UHGV virus genome: UHGV-1578451 | Direction: 5' to 3' (one strand) | From: a virus | DNA length: 11,926 bases | Shown here: one piece after another, positions 1,712 to 11,019 of the stretch | Numbering within the stretch: position 1 is the first letter of the stretch | How the letters are laid out: each line of letters starts with the position of its first letter | Made by a program: the position numbers and the translations under genes | Notes under the pieces: model-generated | Seen by the model: the letters and a program-made list of their open reading frames with translations, nothing else | Told to the model about the DNA's origin: nothing | Database searches by the model: none

Positions 1712-1833
1712 TAAAAGCCTCCGTCATAATTCCTGAAACATACCTCAACTTTCCCGCTATAGTGACGAACACGTTGAACAACATCCGAAATAGGCGCTAT
1801 ACCGGCAGGGCGATAAAAGACTGTTTCACGCAT
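1711..1833 (-). CDS. small hypothetical protein (40 aa), translationally coupled between the methyltransferase gene and rusA
   Basis: ATG 1833-1831 overlaps the upstream stop (ATGCGTGA) and is preceded by AGGGGG at a 7-nt spacing. Encodes MRETVFYRPAGIAPISDVVQRVRHYSGKVEVCFRNYDGGF. Its TAA stop (1713-1711) shares one base with the rusA ATG (TAATG). Below the size cut-off of the ORF table; no homolog recognised. Confidence 0.3.
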   Translation of the reverse strand: MRETVFYRPAGIAPISDVVQRVRHYSGKVEVCFRNYDGGF

Positions 1834-3187
1834 GAGTTACCCCCTGCATGCTGTCGACAAGACCTTGCGCAATTGTGATAATTTCGCTGGTGGCCGTTCG
1901 TTCCAGCCAGAGTTGATTGATGTTGGCTTTCAGCTTGTTCTGCTGTGATTCATCCAGCATGTCAGCGCCGTCTACCTGGTCGAATACAATTCCAACCTCC
2001 AGCGGCCAGATACGGGACTCGGGAAGCGGATCCGCTACTGGTTTAGCTTTCTCACGGATGTGCATGCGGATCTGGCGAATATTGGACCAACTGGAAACAT
2101 CCAGGCTTCCCATAGCTGCAATGAAATCAGTACTGTTCATGCCATATTCACCAGATGCTTCAAGGGCAACAGTCCGAATACGTTCCGACATATCCAAGCG
2201 CGCAGCAGCGTCATCGAATTCAATCGACAACAGCCACTCATCCACACCGAACAAAATACTCTCACGAATAAGCAGCTTCGCTTTGTCGATCGTTAATGGT
2301 GATACCTGAGTGAATTCCGGTGCTTCGACAGAATCCGCCGCCCAGGTATGCCCAAACTTCGATTCACTGAATGTGTATTCTTCTTTATCGCCGAACGCAG
2401 CTCTAACGCATGCCCACGCCTCGACACCGCTGATATCAAAAATATCTTTCTGGGTAAGTGGCAACTCTGCTTCTGGCTTGTCAGCTACAGATGGTGTGAC
2501 AGTTGCAGGTTGAGACTTGCTGACAGCAAATTGCGCCAAAGTCATAAACGCCTGCCCTTTTGCCTCCAGTTCTGTACGGTTGATATAGCTGAACCGCTCA
2601 CCACGCCATGACTTATCAAATACAGCTATGGCACCGGCAAAAAACGCGCTGGTGGGCTTCTGTTTTTCGTCAGCCGGTATAAACCACACAGGCAGATCGA
2701 ACCCAATGCGCCCGCGAATGAATACAATGTGATCGGCATCTTCCGGCCACCACGTTTCACTCGGCGCGGCTTTTATCAGGAATACATAGCGACCGCCCTT
2801 CTCGCGCTGGTCTGCTGCGTACTTCATGATGTGCGTCATACCAGTGATCGCCTGTTTCTCGTGATACTGCGAACGGCTATACGGTGGGTTGCCATAACCA
2901 GCGCCACCCAGTTCTGTAAGACGTTCAGACCAGTCCTGCGTCAGCGCGTTATCTTCGGCGGTGTACCATGCCGGGCATTTCGCGTTGTCGTCGTCAGCAA
3001 ACAAGTCCAGAACTAATGGACCAAATAGCGCGTTGATCCCCCAAAAAAGCAGATCCGGTGTCCGCCACTGATCGCCAACTTCTTTCAATTCGTGAGCTGG
3101 TTTGCTACGCAGTGCCGCCAGCGCCTGGCAATATTTATTGGTATCATGAACGAAACCCCGAATTTTCTGGCAGTGAGTAATCAACAC
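1826..3187 (-). CDS. phage Dam-family N6-adenine DNA methyltransferase fused to an uncharacterised ~300-aa C-terminal domain
   Basis: Continuous minus-strand ORF with TGA stop at 1826-1828. Residues ~97-250 of the maximal ORF carry the phage Dam-family signature: DQWRTPDLLF, LDLFADDDNAKCPAWY, GNPPYS (NPPY catalytic motif), FLIKAAPSETWW, FIRGRIGF. The following ~300 residues (FDKSWRGERFSY...AQGLVDSMQGVTHA) match nothing I recognise. The maximal ORF starts at ATG 3361, but its first 58 codons overlap the 3' end of the O-like gene in another frame and look non-coding. I place the start at GTG 3187 (44-nt overlap with O); TTG 3088 is also possible. No candidate has a good Shine-Dalgarno sequence. 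Confidence 0.75.
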   Translation of the reverse strand: MLITHCQKIRGFVHDTNKYCQALAALRSKPAHELKEVGDQWRTPDLLFWGINALFGPLVLDLFADDDNAKCPAWYTAEDNALTQDWSERLTELGGAGYGNPPYSRSQYHEKQAITGMTHIMKYAADQREKGGRYVFLIKAAPSETWWPEDADHIVFIRGRIGFDLPVWFIPADEKQKPTSAFFAGAIAVFDKSWRGERFSYINRTELEAKGQAFMTLAQFAVSKSQPATVTPSVADKPEAELPLTQKDIFDISGVEAWACVRAAFGDKEEYTFSESKFGHTWAADSVEAPEFTQVSPLTIDKAKLLIRESILFGVDEWLLSIEFDDAAARLDMSERIRTVALEASGEYGMNSTDFIAAMGSLDVSSWSNIRQIRMHIREKAKPVADPLPESRIWPLEVGIVFDQVDGADMLDESQQNKLKANINQLWLERTATSEIITIAQGLVDSMQGVTHA

Positions 3188-4010
3188 TCTGGAAGTTTGC
3201 GCGGCTGGCTGAGTTAGTCTCCCATTTGCCGTTAACGCGTTCAGGCCGGCCAGCACTGGACCATTTGGTCGCGCTTTGCAGGTAACCAGGGAAGTTTTTT
3301 GGAATGAACAGAGTTGCCGGGCGGAGGTATTGCGCCTGCTCGCTATCACGCCAATCGGCATTTTTGTAATCCACTACCAGGCACAGGTCATCAACCGTGA
3401 ATTGTTCCCGAAGACGGGCGCGAATATTCTCCAGCGACGTACTGCATACCTGGTAGCGTGAGCCAGTTGTCTGGTTCAGGTAAGACAAGACCTGTCTGGC
3501 CTGATCAGTAATCACAACCTCAGGGTCTGGTTGCGCAGCAACCGGACAAGAGGGTTTTGAAGTTACTTGTGGATCTTGTTTTGATTTTACTGACGGATCC
3601 CCGCCAGATTCTGACGGGTCAAAACCACCGTTTTTGCCAGATTTCGACGGGTCAGTTTTTGAGGCGTCAAATTTTGATGCGTCAGATTTTGATGTGTCAG
3701 AATCTGACAGTTGAGAAAATGCGGCAGTCTGAAGTTTCGCCACATTCAGGCGATACACGTTCGAAGCATTACGGTTACCATTACGGCGCTGTGTACGCGT
3801 GAGCCAGCCATCTTTTTCAAGCTTTGCGATTGCCGTTCTGATAGTGCTCGGGCCCGCGCCAAGCTGGCGAGCAATAGTTTCAATTGACGGCCAGCACACA
3901 CCTTCATCGCTGCTGAAGTCAGCAAGGCGAGCCATGATCGCAACACTGGACAACTTCATGCCCGACGCTGCGCAACCATCCCATACGTAGCCGGTTAATT
4001 TAGTGCTCAT
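3144..4010 (-). CDS. replication initiation protein, O-like (N-terminal winged-helix DNA-binding domain, repeat linker, C-terminal phage replisome-organiser domain)
   Basis: ATG at 4010, TGA at 3144-3146, 288 aa. N-terminus (SSVAIMARLADFSSDEGVCWPSIETIARQLGAGPSTIRTAIAKLEKDGWLTR) is a winged-helix/HTH of the type seen in phage replication initiators. C-terminus (VITDQARQVLSYLNQTTGSRYQVCSTSLENIRARLREQFTVDDLCLVVDYKNADWRDSEQAQYLRPATLF) resembles the conserved phage replication-protein C-terminal domain. A low-complexity linker between them is encoded by the iteron-like repeats. Position after cro/cII matches lambdoid gene order. Confidence 0.8.
   Translation of the reverse strand: MSTKLTGYVWDGCAASGMKLSSVAIMARLADFSSDEGVCWPSIETIARQLGAGPSTIRTAIAKLEKDGWLTRTQRRNGNRNASNVYRLNVAKLQTAAFSQLSDSDTSKSDASKFDASKTDPSKSGKNGGFDPSESGGDPSVKSKQDPQVTSKPSCPVAAQPDPEVVITDQARQVLSYLNQTTGSRYQVCSTSLENIRARLREQFTVDDLCLVVDYKNADWRDSEQAQYLRPATLFIPKNFPGYLQSATKWSSAGRPERVNGKWETNSASRANFQSVDYSLPENSGFRS
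3585..3713. repeat. iteron-like array of ~15-bp direct repeats inside the O-like gene (putative phage replication origin)
   Basis: Plus-strand units: AGATTCTGACGGGTC (3606-3620), AGATTTCGACGGGTC (3639-3653), AGTTTTTGAGGCGTC (3654-3668), AAATTTTGATGCGTC (3669-3683), AGATTTTGATGTGTC (3684-3698), AGAATCTGACAGTTG (3699-3713), plus a degenerate copy at 3585-3599. An AT-richer stretch (3556-3590) follows in the direction of transcription. Lambda places its ori iterons in the same position, inside the O linker. Confidence 0.55.
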
Positions 4011-4962: not shown

Positions 4963-5157
4963 CTATTTTTTTTCATAAAGCTCAGGGTGAAAAACTAAGC
5001 CACCGCCAGTGCGATATGCCGCTTCAGCAGCCCGACCTTTCGGAATGAGGCGCCCAGGCCTATTGCGCCATTGGTAAACGGCTTCACTGGTAATGCCGAA
5101 AAATTCGGCAACTCTTTCGGCATTGCCAAAGTAATTTTCAATATCGTCAGTTGTCAT
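4963..5157 (-). CDS. cro: Cro-like HTH repressor (YdaS family), first gene of the early-right operon
   Basis: 64 aa, ATG 5157-5155 preceded by AGGAGG. Sequence NAERVAEFFGITSEAVYQWRNRPGRLIPKGRAAEAAYRTGGGLVFHPELY matches the YdaS-type Cro pattern (HTH followed by G-G..HPEL). Transcribed divergently from the CI-like repressor across an 86-bp operator region. Confidence 0.8.
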   Translation of the reverse strand: MTTDDIENYFGNAERVAEFFGITSEAVYQWRNRPGRLIPKGRAAEAAYRTGGGLVFHPELYEKK

Positions 5158-5243: not shown

Positions 5244-5885
5244 GTGAATGGTGCTTCAATGGAAACGGTTGGGCAGCGTATTAAGTCCCTCAGACTGATA
5301 ACTCGAACATCACAGAAAGAGCTTGGGAAGTTCTGCGGAGTGAGTGATGTTGCGGTTGGGTATTGGGAAAAAGATATAAATTTACCGGGTGGGGAATCAC
5401 TGGCGAAACTTGCAAAATTCTTCAATACATCAATTGATTACATCCTATATGGCACCGAATTTGAGGGTAACCTCATTACAAAAATGCGCAGGGTCCCTGT
5501 AATTTCATGGGTTCAAGCTGGTCAATTTACAGAATGTAAGGCTGCTGAAGTTTTCAATGAAGTGGATAAGTGGGTAGAAACGTCCTTAAGGGTTGGCGAT
5601 AGCTCATTCGCGCTGGAAGTTAAAGGGGACTCGATGACAAATCCTAACGGACTTCCCACTATTCCTGAAGGCGCAACCGTGATTGTAGATCCAGATGCAG
5701 AGCCATTTCATGGCAAAATTGTCGTGGCCAGAATAGATGGAACCAACGAAGCGACAGTAAAGAAACTCGTTATTGATGGCCCACAAAAATTTTTAGTCCC
5801 TCTAAATCCACGCTATCCCAACATCCCGATAAATGGTAACTGCCTGATCATCGGCGTCGTCAAAGGCGTTCAATACGAACTTTAA
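5244..5885 (+). CDS. cI: CI-type prophage repressor (N-terminal XRE-type HTH plus C-terminal S24 LexA-like autopeptidase domain)
   Basis: N-terminus QRIKSLRLITRTSQKELGKFCGVSDVAVGYWEKDINLPGGESLAKLAKFF is a classic HTH. C-terminus carries the S24 serine motif GDSM and the downstream Lys pair (VARIDGTNEATVKKL), and a candidate Ala-Gly cleavage site lies in VQAGQF. Divergent from cro. Start is either GTG 5244 or ATG 5259 (METVGQ...). Confidence 0.9.
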   Translation: MNGASMETVGQRIKSLRLITRTSQKELGKFCGVSDVAVGYWEKDINLPGGESLAKLAKFFNTSIDYILYGTEFEGNLITKMRRVPVISWVQAGQFTECKAAEVFNEVDKWVETSLRVGDSSFALEVKGDSMTNPNGLPTIPEGATVIVDPDAEPFHGKIVVARIDGTNEATVKKLVIDGPQKFLVPLNPRYPNIPINGNCLIIGVVKGVQYEL

Positions 5886-5907
5886 AACATAGCTAATCCC
5901 ACCTAAG

Positions 5908-5940
5908 CACCAAGCTAATTAAAGTTTGGTGTTTTTTCTT
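5908..5940 (+). terminator. rho-independent terminator downstream of cI
   Basis: Stem CACCAA (5908-5913) pairs with TTGGTG (5926-5931) around a 12-nt loop, followed by TTTTTT (5932-5937), 23 nt after the cI stop. Confidence 0.6.
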
Positions 5941-5967
5941 GACCATAAAACTAAGTTAAGTTAGATT
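5939..5967 (+). promoter_or_regulatory. PL-like early-left promoter (TTGACC-17-TAGATT) overlapped by an operator copy
   Basis: -35 TTGACC at 5939-5944, a 17-bp spacer, and -10 TAGATT at 5962-5967. The 16-mer CTAAGTTAAGTTAGAT (5951-5966) is a 13/16 match to the PR-side operator at 5171-5186. It lies ~95 bp upstream of the first plus-strand early gene. Confidence 0.45.
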
Positions 5968-6061
5968 TCATTCATCAACAGCGAACAGGCAGGACGCCCA
6001 CGAAGTAGCCGCCGGTGGCGTATGAATAACCGGATGATTCGCACATGGCAGGAGATTGGAT

Positions 6062-6430
6062 ATGGATGACAGTTTCGAAAATCAACGAGATGCCTGGCTT
6101 GTGGTGATTGAAGCAGCAAAAACTGCATTAAGCCAAGTTGAAAGTAGTAGCTACAGAACAGTTAAACAAATGGCATTGGGTTCTATTATCTATGCCTTTG
6201 AAATGCTGGACTTTGATTTTGAAGCCACGAGCCTTCCGTCAGAACAGCATGAAAAGATGAATAGAGAAGCCGCCGCAGCCTATATCGGCGTAGAGGCGCA
6301 AACATTAGCTAATTGGGCTAGCACAGGAAAGGTTCGTATACCTTTTTTAAAAATCGGCAGAAAGGTTACTTATCTAAAAAGTGATTTGGACGTCTATCTT
6401 GCCTCATCGAAGGCAAGTACCACAAGGTAG
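6062..6430 (+). CDS. hypothetical DNA-binding protein with C-terminal excisionase/MerR-type HTH (HTH_17-like); first gene of the early-left operon
   Basis: ATG 6062 preceded by GGAG at a 7-nt spacing (the ORF table starts at TTG 6056). C-terminal REAAAAYIGVEAQTLANWASTGKVRIPFLKIGRKVTYLKSDLDVYL matches the excisionase-family HTH pattern; the acidic N-terminal ~60 aa is unassigned. It occupies the slot held by N in lambda but has no Arg-rich N-terminal motif. Confidence 0.65.
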   Translation: MDDSFENQRDAWLVVIEAAKTALSQVESSSYRTVKQMALGSIIYAFEMLDFDFEATSLPSEQHEKMNREAAAAYIGVEAQTLANWASTGKVRIPFLKIGRKVTYLKSDLDVYLASSKASTTR

Positions 6431-6499
6431 TTTAGGTACCTACCACCGCGCCTGATGTGGTTAAAAGCAGGCCAAAGCTATAACAAGTAACTCCCTGTT

Positions 6500-6548
6500 C
6501 TGGCGGCCCGGTGTTTTCCCGTTTGTCCGGTAACCGCCAGCCTTTTTC
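6500..6548 (+). terminator. rho-independent terminator downstream of the HTH gene
   Basis: CTGGCGG (6500-6506) pairs with CCGCCAG (6534-6540), with an inner CCGG/CCGG 4-bp extension, followed by CCTTTTTC (6541-6548). Confidence 0.55.
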
Positions 6549-6968
6549 AGGGAATAACAGCCGGTCACGGTAAGTATTTCGCAGAGTGCTTACCGGGACT
6601 GGAAGAGTTAGCACTTGGAGACGGTCCTTATAAATGTCCTGGACAGTGGCGGTACCAGCACTGACAACAGCGGCAGACGTTCAACTGTGTAAACGGAGAG
6701 ATGCCAGCTCGCTCGACGGCAGTGACGGCGGGAAGTAGACCGCTGACAGCTGGGAAAGACCAGCACACAACGATGAGAGCATTGACGAGCAAGGCATAAG
6801 TGCTGGTTCGATTCCAGACAGTCCCATTCAGTTGGGAGGGTTGGGCAGGGAAAAGGTTCATTCGATTCGGACACCGGCAGTGCTCTCTTCGTTGTGGTGA
6901 AGTGCAACCCTTAGAGGTAACCAGAAGATAGCATCTGGCGCCACAACCTTATTGCTGTGTGTAGTCTT

Positions 6969-7040
6969 GGCGGTACCAGGGTCTTCAACCTTATGCAAGG
7001 GGGACGAAGATAATGTTCTACCTCGGTACCGCCCTTTTTA
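6969..7040 (+). terminator. terminator-like composite stem-loop ending in a T-run, at the end of the ORF-poor region
   Basis: GGCGGTACC (6969-6977) is the exact reverse complement of GGTACCGCC (7025-7033), which is followed by CTTTTTA (7034-7040). The 47-nt loop can form nested helices (GTCTTC/GAAGAT, CCTT/AAGG). Unusual because the closing helix is long-range. Confidence 0.4.
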
Positions 7041-7203
7041 CGCAACAGAAAAGGGCATCACCGGGCGACGGGCTCATAACCCAATCCACCCGGGCAAAAA
7101 GAAAGCGGTCTCTCAAGCCGCCAACCAATGCAGGTGCCCTTCTCTGTTGTGTATGGATAAACTAACTTTTTAGCGTCTGTGCAGATGCGCTGAGGAACCG
7201 AGA

Positions 7204-8121
7204 ATGAATAATCCGTTTTTCAAAAATATGTTGGTGTACCGCCTTAGTCGCGATTTCACCATCAACCAGGAAGAGCTGGAACAGCAGCTTGAACTATTTC
7301 GCTTCACTCCATGCGGTAGCCAGGATATGGCAAAAACCGGTTGGGTATCACCACTGGGTCAGCGGTCAGATTGCTTGCATCACACTGTCAATAATCAAGT
7401 GTTGTTGGTTATTCGCCGGGAAGAAAAAATACTGCCATCTCCTGTCATTGCTGAAGAACTACGCCAGCGTGTGGCGCGTCTGGAATCCGATCAGGGGCGT
7501 CGCCTCAAAAAAACTGAGAAAGATTCGCTGCGTGATGAAGTGTTGCACTCCCTGCTTCCTCGGGCGTTCTCCAAAAACTCGACTGTTAGTTTGTGGATCA
7601 ACATCACCGACGGTCTGATCATGGTTGATGCTGCCAGCGCCAAACGTGCCGAAGACTCACTGGCCCTGCTTCGTAAAACTCTCGGTTCTCTCCCGGTGGT
7701 ACCGCTGACTATGGAAGCGCCGATCGAACTAACTATGACCGACTGGGTTCGTTCTGGTAGTGCGCCTGCTGGCTTTGGCCTGGGTGATGAAGCCGAACTG
7801 AAAGCCATTCTTGAAAATGGCGGTATCGGACGCTTTAAAAAACAGGCTCTGGTCAGCGACGAAATTCATGTGCATCTGGAAGCTGGCAAAGTAGTTACAA
7901 AGCTGTCTATCGACTGGCAACAGCGCATTCAGTTCGTTCTTTGCGATGACGGCAGCATCAAGCGCCTTAAGTTCTCTGATGAGCTGACAGAACAAAACGA
8001 CGATATCGACCGTGAGGATGCGGCTCAGCGGTTCGACGCTGACTTTGTTCTGATGACCGGCGAGCTTATCTCTCTCATTAACGGATTAACAACCTCTCTC
8101 GGCGGCGAAGCCAAGCGATAA
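7204..8121 (+). CDS. rdgC: recombination-associated protein RdgC homolog (phage-borne)
   Basis: 305 aa, ATG 7204 preceded by GAGGAA. Closely resembles E. coli RdgC along its whole length ([144 protein letters not shown]) but is clearly diverged from the chromosomal copy as I remember it. Confidence 0.9.
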
Positions 8122-9184: not shown

Positions 9185-9525
9185 GTAAATCTCTGAACGC
9201 ACGTTGCATCCGTCGCTGGACCGTCGAATTTAAAGACCTCTGCGACTCGAAACACAGTCCGTACTGGCGTAAGCACCACCTTCGCAGTTACATCCGGGAA
9301 TGTGCCCTGACTACCGCTGATTGCATGGTAGAGCGTATGGCAGAGGATAATGCGATGGTAGATTTTCAGGAGACTAATCGAGGGTGGTCGCCGGAGTTCT
9401 CTGCCTGGTACCACGAACGCCGTGAACAGTATCTCAAAGAAGCTCGTGACTATCTGAACGAAGACGCCACCAATGACGAGATCGACGAGGAAATCCAGAA
9501 CGAGCTGGAGGCCTGGAATGACTAA
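9181..9525 (+). CDS. hypothetical phage protein with acidic C-terminus
   Basis: 114 aa; ATG 9181 overlaps the previous stop (ATGA) and is preceded by AGGGAG. C-terminus is strongly acidic (NEDATNDEIDEEIQNELEAWND). No family recognised. Confidence 0.6.
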   Translation: MSKSLNARCIRRWTVEFKDLCDSKHSPYWRKHHLRSYIRECALTTADCMVERMAEDNAMVDFQETNRGWSPEFSAWYHERREQYLKEARDYLNEDATNDEIDEEIQNELEAWND

Positions 9526-9991
9526 CAGCCCAATGACAGCACTCAACAAACAGGCGCTGCGCAAATTAGCAACTGATGCGCACGAGCTTGGCATCATCAA
9601 GCGTTACACGAAAGGCATCGAGGCTAATAAGAGATTCGTTGCCATCGCTACTCCTTTGACTTTTCTGGCGCTACTGGATGAGCTGGAAGCCGCAGAGAAG
9701 CGCATAGCAGAACTGGAGGCGAATAAGGGTAAGCCAGTGATGTTTATTGATGGCGATATCTCCGCATCTGACGCCGAGAAACTTGCAGAAGTTATTCGTG
9801 AAATGGGACGACGCACCAGCGCCTGCATTACAGGAGGAAATGGAAGTCGGGAAGTGGCGGTGAAACAATTCGATGACTTCCAGATTGTCCACTATGGCGC
9901 TACCGAGGATTACGCGAAAGGTTATATAGACTGCCAGAACAACTACAACAAAGCGCTTGCCGCCGCTGGCATTGGCGTGAAGGGGGAGTGA
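9517..9991 (+). CDS. hypothetical phage protein with central coiled-coil segment (possibly Ead/Ea22-like)
   Basis: Start placed at ATG 9517 (GGAGG 7 nt upstream; overlaps the previous gene by 8 nt); the ORF table starts at GTG 9473. ALLDELEAAEKRIAELEANKGK is a coiled-coil motif that I associate with Ea22-like early-left proteins; this is recalled, not searched. Confidence 0.6.
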
Positions 9992-10270: not shown

Positions 10271-11019
10271 CAACTAACCACCCGGCGCACGGTCCTGTAT
10301 CACTCGAGCGCCTGCACCAGATAAGCGAAATACTCAGCAAAGCAGCAGCACAAAGCGACGGCGGTAATCTCGGCTACGCAATGGCTGATGCAGTGAAGGT
10401 TATTGATGGGGCTATTGCAGCGTTTAGCTCTGAGCCACAACGAAACCCTGTGTTGACCTATGCGGATAGTTATCGCGATATGGCTGAGCGCGGAGTTGAA
10501 TCTATCCCGGTCTGGAGCGTAATAATTGACCTTGAAAGAAACATCGCTCCACTCTACACCGCCCCGCCAGCGCCGGTAGTGCCAACGTTCGATGAATGGC
10601 TGGCAATTCGCGGTGATAAGCCACTTGGTTGGGTTAAAGACGCGATGCGTGAATCGTATGATGCTTGCCGCGCCGCCATGCTTCAGCATGATCCAGTTTG
10701 CACATGCCCTAGTGGTGACGGTTCGCTACGCTGGCCGTGTCCGGTGCATCCTGGCAACTCTCCGGTTACTCCGGATGGTTGGGCTTTGGTGCCTAAGAGG
10801 CTAACCGCCGAGAACGGCGCAAAGGGTGTGCTGTCCGGTGAGTTTTCAGAAACGAAATTTATAAACTGCCCAGAGTGTTTTGGTGATGATGAATGCGAAA
10901 CATGCGACGGCAGCGGTCGAATTGAGATAACAGTGCCAGTCAGTTGGACGAACATCAAGGCCATTTGGGCTAAAGGTGTCGAGCATTTCGAAGCAGCACC
11001 TCAGCAGGAGAATGTATAA
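10267..11019 (+). CDS. hypothetical phage protein with C-terminal DnaJ-type CxxCxGxG zinc-finger motifs
   Basis: 250 aa; ATG 10267 is preceded by AGGAG. C-terminal cysteine cluster CTCPSGDG...WPCPVHPG...CPECFGDDECETCDGSGR contains paired CxxC(xGxG) units typical of zinc ribbons / DnaJ-like zinc fingers. Confidence 0.65.
   Translation: MTTNHPAHGPVSLERLHQISEILSKAAAQSDGGNLGYAMADAVKVIDGAIAAFSSEPQRNPVLTYADSYRDMAERGVESIPVWSVIIDLERNIAPLYTAPPAPVVPTFDEWLAIRGDKPLGWVKDAMRESYDACRAAMLQHDPVCTCPSGDGSLRWPCPVHPGNSPVTPDGWALVPKRLTAENGAKGVLSGEFSETKFINCPECFGDDECETCDGSGRIEITVPVSWTNIKAIWAKGVEHFEAAPQQENV

Follow-up and report, generated by a model that had tools for sequence, protein, structure and literature searches.

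RNA modules between the early-left promoter and rdgC

The stretch of UHGV virus genome UHGV-1578451 analysed here (11,926 nucleotides (nt), hereafter the window) is a lambdoid prophage immunity region, as judged from a Pfam scan of its nine main open reading frames (ORFs). Between its first early-left ORF and rdgC lies a gap (6431-7203) that the initial annotation had taken for a candidate structured RNA or cis-regulatory element. Comparison with related phages, which share the plan of cI, a non-coding stretch and early-left genes, shows this gap to be a cluster of independent conserved RNA modules predicted on the plus strand. Chief among our subjects is module E, a double-T-arm tRNA-like RNA. 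Reading from the early-left promoter PL, the order is a leader RNA, an accessory ORF, a unit 1 ending in a terminator-like hairpin (t1), a small hairpin (P0) with E, a DicF-like stretch with its terminator, a module Z and then rdgC. The RNA features are as follows (bp, base pairs; sRNA, small RNA).

6749-6764, plus strand: P0 hairpin, GCUGG-GAAAGA-CCAGC, directly 5′ of E
6765-6898, plus strand: module E, double-T-arm tRNA-like RNA of 134 nt (covariance model, covariation)
6953-7039, plus strand: DicF-like sRNA/terminator module (covariation, weak Rfam DicF match)
6953-6968, plus strand: conserved single-stranded stretch of the DicF-like module, UGCUGUGUGUAGUCUU
6969-7033, plus strand: long hairpin of the DicF-like module, GGCGGUACC...GGUACCGCC, stem 6969-6982/7020-7033
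7040-7153, plus strand: module Z, long-stem RNA of 114 nt (covariation, fold)
7040-7059 with 7134-7153, plus strand: P1z, 19-bp closing stem of Z
7070-7082, plus strand: P3z of Z, GGG-CUCAUAA-CCC
6450-6547, plus strand: unit 1, a P0-type hairpin, a single-stranded stretch and the terminator-like hairpin t1
6561-6602, plus strand: near-perfect long hairpin with core CGGUAAGUAUUU-CGCA-GAGUGCUUACCG
5973-6051, plus strand: conserved PL leader RNA, a three-way junction outside 6431-7203

BLAST searches of phages, E. coli genomes and 113 fetched loci resolved the gap into a mosaic of blocks with separate distributions. Among the 113 loci, block 5965-6045 matches about 55, 6441-6555 matches 12, 6590-6743 matches 9-11, 6745-6900 (which contains P0 and E) matches all, 6935-7025 matches 45 and 7025-7095 matches 82, and the order of leader, E and terminator block is maintained throughout. 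The call of a structured non-coding RNA on the plus strand is borne out by strand-specific folding and by three modules (E, Z and the DicF-like module) in which homologues carry compensatory changes, a comparison that the initial annotation had itself proposed.

All of the features listed in the initial annotation are present where it had placed them. The 12-mer TGGCGGTACCAG occurs at 6647-6658 and 6968-6979 and is the sole direct repeat of at least 10 nt, and GGTACCGCC lies at 7025-7033; from these elements an alternative-structure switch had been proposed, in which the 3′ element pairs with either the near or the far copy of the repeat. The far 12-mer, however, is not kept in the closest relative, the homologous blocks reading CAGTGGCGCTTTGG in locus L099 and CAGTGGCGGTTCCGC in L021, and the alternative-helix model is therefore without comparative support. 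The region is, by sequence comparison, a mosaic of separate plus-strand RNA modules and not one alternative-structure switch. The hexamer GGTACC, found in the gap at 6435, 6651, 6972 and 7025, is over-represented in the whole window (6 occurrences against 1.44 expected; 0/200 shuffles reach 6), but two of the four sites in the gap are merely the arms of one terminator stem.

Structure and covariation of module E

Module E is built from a long closing stem (P1), two T-arms (T1 and T2), an acceptor-like hairpin and two conserved single strands, all on the plus strand:

6766-6784 with 6878-6896, plus strand: P1, closing stem of 19 bp
6785-6794, plus strand: invariant ACGAGCAAGG, followed by a short variable stretch
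6803-6817, plus strand: T1, CUGG-UUCGAUU-CCAG
6819-6840, plus strand: hypervariable acceptor-like hairpin, free in sequence and length
6841-6855, plus strand: invariant UUGGGCAGGGAAAAG (UGGGCAGRGAAAAG in relatives)
6856-6872, plus strand: T2, GUUCA-UUCGAUU-CGGAC in the window and GUCCG-UUCRAUU-CGGAC in relatives

The T-arm-like motif that had drawn attention to this region (GGTTCGATTCC at 6805-6815, with TTCGATTC at both 6807-6814 and 6861-6868) is real and is the hallmark of the module. An alignment of eight phages defines the boundaries of E, where identity begins and ends abruptly and the flanks are unrelated. Scanning viral contigs for its pattern yielded 106 stretches, among which 48 core sequences are distinct, and covariation was assessed on 53 distinct sequences. 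In this set 90% of the cells at predicted pairs are paired and 16 pairs show changes on both sides (118 cells); none of 500 shuffles scored as high, and sliding the partners against each other lowered the paired fraction to 36-54%. All four helices contribute compensatory changes, and the stems of both T-arms do so in Brenneria, in Yersinia and in the L282/L284 variants. These data show E to be a conserved RNA with a predicted four-helix structure.

The structure is strand-specific, because G.U pairs are frequent in P1 and can form on the plus strand only. A covariance model of E (R1) gave 153.4 bits on the plus strand (E-value = 7.5e-41) against 27.7 bits on the minus strand, and folding z scores were -3.6 to -4.2 and -1.1, respectively. 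Homologues range from 130 to 141 nt in length with differences that are not multiples of 3, which excludes a conserved reading frame across E; together with the lack of any Pfam family above threshold for the ORFs in the gap, this agrees with the view that no convincing ORF is present. Hypothetical ORFs are annotated across E in some GenBank records.

The T-arms of E have a 5-bp stem closed by a G-C pair and a 7-nt loop of the form U-U-C-R-A-N-N. Their loops vary mainly at the purine (UUCGAUU/UUCAAUU), as in tRNA, with UUCAACU as the T2 loop of L210. Purine apart, both T-loops are, like ACGAGCAAGG and UGGGCAG, invariant or nearly so in 25-53 sequences, while the acceptor-like hairpin is rebuilt with stems as different as UCCCA/UGGGA, ACCUC/GAGGU, UCCUG/CAGGA, CCAGGAUA/UAUCUGG and CCAC/GUGG. 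The window itself departs from its relatives in T2, where the loop-closing pair is a unique A.C mismatch (G-C in 52/53 sequences) and a U.G pair stands where most relatives have C-G. A G-quadruplex motif is present at 6835-6851, as had been noted, but it is lost in the type B and type C variants of E and is not a conserved feature.

P0 has a 5-bp G+C-rich stem and a purine-rich loop (fold z = -4.1). Its stem varies by lineage yet always pairs, with CCUCG/CGAGG, CCCGG/CCGGG, GCCGG/CCGGC, GCCAC/GUGGC and GCCUG/CAGGC among the observed versions.

Distribution of module E and its coupling to tRNA genes

Module E is present in more than 110 viral contigs and in 15 phage records, including Stx2a-converting phages, SPN1S-like Uetakevirus, Edwardsiella EPP-1, Klebsiella Kp4866-6 and Citrobacter phiNP. 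It occurs as a single copy in 79/5426 complete E. coli genomes, with no RefSeq feature beneath it among the E. coli matches listed, and also in Yersinia, Buttiauxella, Brenneria and Rouxiella. An earlier genome-wide pattern, GAGCAAGG..GGTTCRATTCC, was too loose and retrieved mostly ordinary tRNAs (7/120 loci were true).

The Rfam search that had been recommended for this region was run with Rfam 15 on the whole window at gathering threshold and on 6300-7300 at E-value ≤ 10. Nothing reached the gathering threshold, and E has no family match; at the relaxed cut-off the results were an 8.8-bit match of the tmRNA clan on T1, other chance matches and a weak match to DicF, discussed below. ARAGORN called no tRNA or tmRNA in the window. 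Full-text literature searches with diagnostic 11-15-mers of E returned unrelated primer matches only, and keyword searches for tRNA-like phage RNAs returned nothing relevant. The Pas sRNAs of enteropathogenic E. coli prophages were also considered; they belong to the late region and are unrelated to the cluster.

In SPN1S-type phages the 5′ end of a tRNA-Arg(UCU) gene overlaps the 3′ end of E, so that RNase P cleavage of the tRNA would set the 3′ end of E. In one of these, SPN9TCW, promoter, leader, E, tRNA-Arg and a DicF-like terminator form one unit on the strand opposite to terminase and portal, and an Rfam search of this cassette finds its tRNA only. Such an arrangement of E, tRNA and terminator ahead of the next ORF looks like a non-coding transcription unit. 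Two further loci, L015 (1380-2340) and L099 (7400-8300), carry E in arrays with other long-stem modules that have CACAAC...GUUGUG bases, and here a single strand serves one module as its 3′ strand and the following module as its acceptor 5′ strand, so that neighbours compete for pairing. Each array also has a tRNA-like gene that contains about 68 nt of inserted sequence and that ARAGORN does not call; the L015 copy scores 40 bits with the Rfam tRNA model. In SfV (L235:2320-2400), a P0-type hairpin and a CAUAAC...GUUGUG hairpin with a 21-nt loop stand in place of E, an empty head, which suggests that the stem is a scaffold on which heads can be swapped.

Relaxing the scan brought up further enteric variants of E as well as distant relatives in L302, L297, L319 and L328 (28-49 bits), which have the same plan and unrelated stem sequences. 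Fold z scores are -3.2 to -5.7 for L302, L319 and L297 and -1.3 for L328. In L328 (13517-13684, plus strand) the E-like RNA lies between two tRNAs of a 13-tRNA array and shares the last 8 nt of its 3′ end with the tRNA that follows, a junction like that of E with the SPN1S-type tRNA-Arg. In L319, a metagenomic phage contig with tRNAs, a double-T-arm long-stem RNA (10290-10409, minus strand; 30.7 bits with R1) lies about 400 nt upstream of a GOLLD RNA (9422-9892, minus strand; Rfam 198.6 bits) and may be part of the variable 5′ half of that GOLLD RNA. Flank pairing energies were also screened for additional double-T-arm RNAs; the controls were poorly distributed, and the screen served only for picking examples. 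In all, these loci show that E is physically coupled to tRNA genes, and that it is a cassette moving between unrelated phages which in some of them is fused end-to-start to a real tRNA gene.

The DicF-like module and module Z

The DicF-like module ends in a U5 run at 7035-7039 and folds with z = -3.2. In 15 diverse sequences the base of its stem has nine pairs, five of them compensatory (for example GGCGGUUAUCC/GGAUAACCGCC and GUCGGCGUC/GACGCCGAC), and the U5-6 run is invariant. With a G+C-rich covarying hairpin and a U-run at a conserved position, 6969-7039 is a predicted intrinsic terminator, and it is one of two terminator-like hairpins with a T5 run, the other being 6500-6547, that had been recognised earlier. 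A simple terminator scanner missed both of them because their loops are long.

The Rfam DicF model (RF00039) aligns end to end with the module, at 16.6 bits (E-value = 1.1) in the window and 29.1 bits (E-value = 4.8e-4) in the L015 homologue. These scores are below the gathering score of 48 bits, and 6953-7039 is accordingly described as a DicF relative or look-alike and not as a member of the Rfam family. Pairing of the DicF-like stretch with the E. coli ftsZ initiation region, computed with RNAduplex, was no better than for shuffles; authentic DicF did no better, so this comparison is powerless. The same module follows the tRNA-Arg of SPN9TCW, so that E, an optional tRNA and a DicF-like terminator make up one cassette. 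The 3′ arm of the terminator and its U-tract could instead pair with the first strand of the Z closing stem (7024-7038/7049-7063; CGGUACCGCCCUUUU/AAAAGGGCAUCACCG), an arrangement that was considered and set aside; it is confined to this phage lineage and not kept elsewhere.

Module Z has 32 predicted pairs, six of them compensatory, and a fold z of -5.6. Besides P1z and P3z it contains P2z (CCGGG/CCCGG in the window, CCGGA/UCCGG in other loci) and a variable hairpin, P4z. The sequence at 7069-7082 (CGGGCUCAUAACCC) equals nt 28-41 of E. coli initiator tRNA-fMet at 14/14 positions; the tRNA sequence used agrees at 100% identity with annotated tRNA-Met genes in each of the 5426 genomes. Z carries this motif, with the three G-C pairs and CAU loop characteristic of initiator tRNA, at the end of a long helix. 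In 82/113 loci the 5′ part of Z is conserved. A search with 6931-7165, a block covering both the DicF-like module and Z, matches 63 phage records, many over the Z part only, and these include SfV, SfII, SfIV, ST64B, mEp460, cdtI and Stx2c phages; of the 372 E. coli records with a match to the region, most are due to a 71-nt stretch at 7025-7095 (the 3′ arm of the terminator and the 5′ part of Z).

Directly after Z stands a conserved AUG/GUG/ACG-GAGAAAC, seen in the window (7153-7165) and in L002, L003, L005, L006, L015 and L098. A tiny ORF could begin at it (MDKLTF* in the window, MEK... or VEKPT... in other loci), or it could be a target of the Z CAU loop. Many loci have a further GGCGGUGGCAGCCGCC hairpin followed by U residues past Z.

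The leader RNA and the upstream parts of the cluster

The leader RNA begins at about +1 of PL and is common to phages that differ in operators, promoters and immunity types, as seen by alignment. It combines a closing helix, GCGAACA/UGAUUCGC, with a hairpin GGC-AGGAC-GCC and a covarying 5-bp hairpin whose 12-nt loop, GGCRUAUGAAKA, is conserved. RNAalifold predicts 15 pairs, four of them with compensatory changes. A covariance model of the leader (R2) finds its sole match in the window at 101.9 bits and one match each in 26/68 other loci searched. If any RNA antiterminator exists in this operon, 5973-6051 is the best-placed candidate for a nut- or put-like site.

In SPN1S-, Stx2a- and Klebsiella-type loci (L001:2830-3000, L006:2850-2990 and L015:1560-1680) the leader of the window is replaced, upstream of P0 and E, by another conserved block. 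It is non-coding, about 170 nt long (UAUGGCACAUG ... GGAAUGUGCAAG ... CACC-loop-GGUG, followed by GGUGUGAC) and has no Rfam match.

Unit 1 starts with a P0-type hairpin, GCCUG...CAGGC, at 6450-6472 and ends with t1, CUGGCGG...CCGCCAG (stem 6500-6506/6534-6540), and T5 at 6543-6547; it folds at -20.3 kcal/mol (z = -1.5). The unit 1 block is 93-96% identical in 12 loci, where the U-run of t1 directly abuts E; the 7-bp GC stem and U5 of t1 are kept in all 12, at a level of variation too low for a covariation test. The long hairpin at 6561-6602, recognised earlier from its CGGTAAG/CTTACCG arms, was folded as 6560-6604 and is very stable (-25.8 kcal/mol, z = -6.5; 0/200 shuffles equally stable). 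It is also present in L099, with changed stem bases.

Genomic setting

The protein genes and signals around the cluster are given below.

4963-5157, minus strand: Cro
5244-5885, plus strand: cI (HTH_3 and Peptidase_S24)
5905-5934, plus strand: cI terminator (promoter/terminator scan)
5939-5967, plus strand: PL-like sigma-70 promoter, TTGACC, 17-nt spacer, TAGATT (same scan)
6056-6430, plus strand: HTH_17 (excisionase/MerR-like) ORF (Pfam PF12728)
7204-8121, plus strand: rdgC (Pfam RdgC, E-value = 4e-117), the first protein gene past the RNA cluster

Genes for CII, replication, Dam and an antirepressor are on the minus strand of the window, and transcription of the cluster is presumed to come from the PL-like promoter. 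The HTH_17 ORF is specific to this phage, with no match to 6060-6430 in the 113 loci. Across about 30 loci, nearly every phage has its own small ORF at this place between the PL leader and E, a slot that behaves as a hot spot for accessory genes. Elsewhere the slot encodes, for example, a CxxC...CxxC zinc-ribbon protein or a HicA-like protein, and in L051 a 70-amino-acid protein with an N-like, arginine-rich N-terminus (MNAAQRRKAYRK).

On the minus strand, the 511-amino-acid ORF at 1826-3361 has a Dam methyltransferase domain confined to residues 90-271 and overlaps the ORF at 3144-4010 by about 220 nt. It may be a fusion or have a mis-called start.

Possible functions of the cluster

The explanation that we favour overall, and to which we give about an even chance, is one of tRNA mimicry in trans by small RNAs that are cut out of the PL transcript. 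After induction, transcription from PL would run into the cluster, and host nucleases that process tRNAs and sRNAs would cut the transcript into stable small RNAs, with RNase P cutting where a tRNA abuts E and RNase E or RNase III cutting at the long stems. E would then show one or two surfaces resembling the tRNA elbow, its T-loops capped by the conserved GG-containing strands, and would act as a tRNA mimic on an elbow-reading factor of the host or of a rival phage, while Z would present an initiator-tRNA anticodon arm in like manner. The DicF-like module would be a base-pairing sRNA, its hairpin also terminating much of the PL transcript. The most plausible pay-off would be the blunting of tRNA-directed host responses early in infection.

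Several points weigh against this explanation. Every step beyond a conserved structured RNA is one that we infer. E is not a decoy for anticodon nucleases, as it has neither D-arm nor anticodon arm and no tRNA score, and the likeness of Z to tRNA-fMet is limited to the loop with its three adjoining G-C pairs and does not extend to the outer two stem pairs, which are mismatched. No partner protein co-occurs with E, the neighbouring ORFs differing in almost every locus. A cis-regulatory role would fit equally with the place of E in an operon leader, where it is flanked by terminators, and the copy in the window may be slightly impaired because of the A.C mismatch in T2.

A cis-acting role could take the form of processing or stability elements. 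Here the long stems (P1 of E, P1 of Z and 6561-6602) would be RNase III, RNase E or RNase P entry sites or insulators that set the half-life or translation of the early-left mRNA, much as the RNase III sites of the lambda N leader and sib, and the excised pieces would be functionless. Stems of 17-25 bp with a common CAAC...GUUG base do stand at every module boundary, the scaffold is kept while heads are exchangeable, and the whole cluster is part of an operon's 5′ leader. A mere cleavage site, however, needs neither interior single strands nor T-loops, which are the most conserved parts of E; the same heads recur in distant phages on entirely different stem sequences, and in SPN1S-type phages E, tRNA and terminator form a unit before the next ORF. 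We consider this reading rather unlikely.

Somewhat less probable still, in our judgement, is put-like antitermination, which the initial annotation had placed in 6431-7203 and in which E or the cluster would let RNA polymerase pass 6500-6547 and 6969-7039 without N, so that rdgC and the early-left genes beyond it are expressed. In its favour, PL and rdgC are separated by two or more good terminators, with another after Z in many loci; no conserved N-like protein follows PL, as had been noted earlier; E is always upstream of the covarying DicF-like terminator; and a structured promoter-proximal leader is conserved across immunity types. Against it, the region has no sequence similarity to HK022 put. 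E cannot act on t1 because it lies downstream of it, abutting its U-run in 12 loci. There is one copy of E per phage locus and no second copy of E or leader in the first 5 kb of the PR operon. The fusion of E to tRNA genes and its presence in tRNA arrays and in a podovirus moron would be unexpected for an operon-specific antiterminator, and SfV-type phages keep the leader, the terminator and Z without the E head.

Far less credible, with only a few chances in a hundred, is a feature at the level of DNA or debris, be it recombination linkers between lambdoid modules, operators of the HTH_17 protein (for which the GGCGGTACC repeats were candidates) or a decayed gene. Blocks with separate distributions are expected at module junctions, GGTACC is over-represented, and ORFs have been annotated across E. 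Compensatory changes, however, maintain pairing in the terminator, in Z and in every helix of E, and they largely refute this reading. The G.U pairs give a strand-specific structure, the length variants of 130-141 nt break any frame, and no Pfam family scores above threshold for the ORFs. Binding sites of the HTH protein are rejected as the explanation, because none of the related loci examined has the HTH gene although they keep the RNA modules; gene remnants are rejected as well, given the sharp boundaries, the covarying stems and the lack of an intact gene at this position in relatives.

Returning to tRNA mimicry in trans, a bolder form of it, which we put forward tentatively and think improbable as a whole, is that temperate phages of Enterobacterales, together with distant tRNA-array and GOLLD phages, encode an unrecognised class of 'tRNA-part' RNAs, in which E captures or imitates the elbow and Z shows the initiator anticodon arm. 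First made after induction, these would be decoys or inhibitors against the tRNA-directed weapons of host or rival prophage, for instance initiator-tRNA nucleases of VapC/MvpT type or nucleases and sensors that read the elbow, and would form an RNA-only anti-defence island at the position of lambda N.

If E and Z are indeed functional small RNAs, a widespread and unannotated family of tRNA-mimicking RNAs is present in well-studied phage groups (Stx2a-converting, SfV/ST64B-like and epsilon15-like phages of E. coli, Shigella and Salmonella), placed in the operon that is expressed first after induction. This would bear on the role of small stable RNAs co-transcribed with phage tRNAs, a question since T4 species 1 and 2, on how lambdoid phages without N express early-left genes across several terminators, and on whether phages answer tRNA-targeting immunity with RNA decoys besides replacement tRNAs. 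The covariance models and coordinates would allow annotation of the family and define targets for deletion and pull-down.

Comparison with known systems

HK022 put is a processive antiterminator made of RNA alone; each site consists of two stem-loops spanning about 70 nt, and PR is followed by a site of its own. Like put, the cluster is a non-coding structured RNA near PL in a lambdoid phage without N, with terminators downstream; in contrast, E has four helices, is a single copy downstream of t1 and also occurs in tRNA arrays. A blastn search (word size 7) of 5900-7300 against the HK022 immunity region gave only chance matches of 11-28 nt (E-value ≥ 1.2), and the window, including the first 5 kb of the PR operon, contains no second copy of E or the leader. 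As for N itself, the first ORF after PL in the window is the HTH_17 gene, and among the slot ORFs only that of L051 is arginine-rich. Lambda boxB is GCCCU-GAAAA-AGGGC, which P0 (GCUGG-GAAAGA-CCAGC) resembles; P0 loops are, however, 6-14 nt long and have no boxA-like CGCUCUUA upstream. E was considered as a nut site, which it appears not to be.

The large ornate phage RNAs GOLLD and ROOL typically adjoin tRNA genes. They share with the modules of the cluster that they are phage-borne, unusually structured non-coding RNAs, but the modules are separable and about 80-135 nt each, whereas GOLLD or ROOL is one RNA of 600-800 nt; neither has an Rfam match in the window.

The DicF RNA of the Qin prophage and 6953-7039 both lie inside an early prophage operon, and both consist of a single-stranded 5′ stretch, a UUGGCGGUA...UACCGCCC terminator hairpin and a U-run. 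They differ in that the 5′ stretch here (UGCUGUGUGUAGUC) is unlike the ftsZ-pairing sequence of DicF and in that the hairpin loop is 51 nt long, against 23 nt in the DicF model.

Module Z displays the anticodon arm of initiator tRNA-fMet and may be compared with anticodon-arm mimics such as the thrS operator. It was considered as a tRNA and rejected, the motif being embedded in a 114-nt four-helix RNA with the outer two stem pairs mismatched. E was likewise rejected as a tRNA, having no ARAGORN call and no Rfam tRNA match at E-value ≤ 10 in 6300-7300.

In its setting, E recalls the T4 species 1 and 2 RNAs (rnaC and rnaD), which are small, annotated as stable and directly beside a tRNA-Arg gene, in T4 of the UCU species. 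rnaC ends in a T-arm and an acceptor-like 3′ end. There is no homology to E, R1 matching only isolated T-arms at 8-10 bits, and the T4 RNAs lack a pair of T-arms enclosed by a long stem and belong to the tRNA cluster of a virulent phage, not to a prophage PL operon.

YrlA is a bacterial Y RNA with a tRNA-like domain and Rsr/Ro60 as its partner (PMC4201824; bioRxiv 10.1101/312249), and near its 5′ end it has the motif GNCGAA(N0-1)G (PMC4201824). Both YrlA and E have a long stem formed from the 5′ and 3′ ends, and their heads follow the same order of stem, purine-rich motif, variable region, T-arm and closed acceptor-like hairpin; both are sometimes found beside tRNAs and have versions in phages. 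Where YrlA of S. Typhimurium has a D-arm (GCUC-AAUGGUA-GAGC), E has unpaired UGGGCAG and a second T-arm, and no D stem. The E motif GACGAGCAAGG (GACGAG, with GCCGAG in L010 and GAUGAG in L090) has G as its sixth base, in contrast to the A of YrlA. No rsr/TROVE gene was found by Pfam among the nine main ORFs of the window or among the annotated neighbours of E in seven phage records (cI, cro, rdgC, DUF2303 and the like). Most E. coli hosts are not known to have Ro60. The Y-RNA families of Rfam 15 gave no match at E-value ≤ 10, although Rfam 15 itself may lack a YrlA model. With no Ro60 neighbour, no D-arm and GACGAG in place of GNCGAA, E was rejected as a YrlA RNA. Among the systems compared here, YrlA is nonetheless the closest to E in predicted plan, and by sequence and architecture E appears to be a tRNA-like small RNA that founds a new family.

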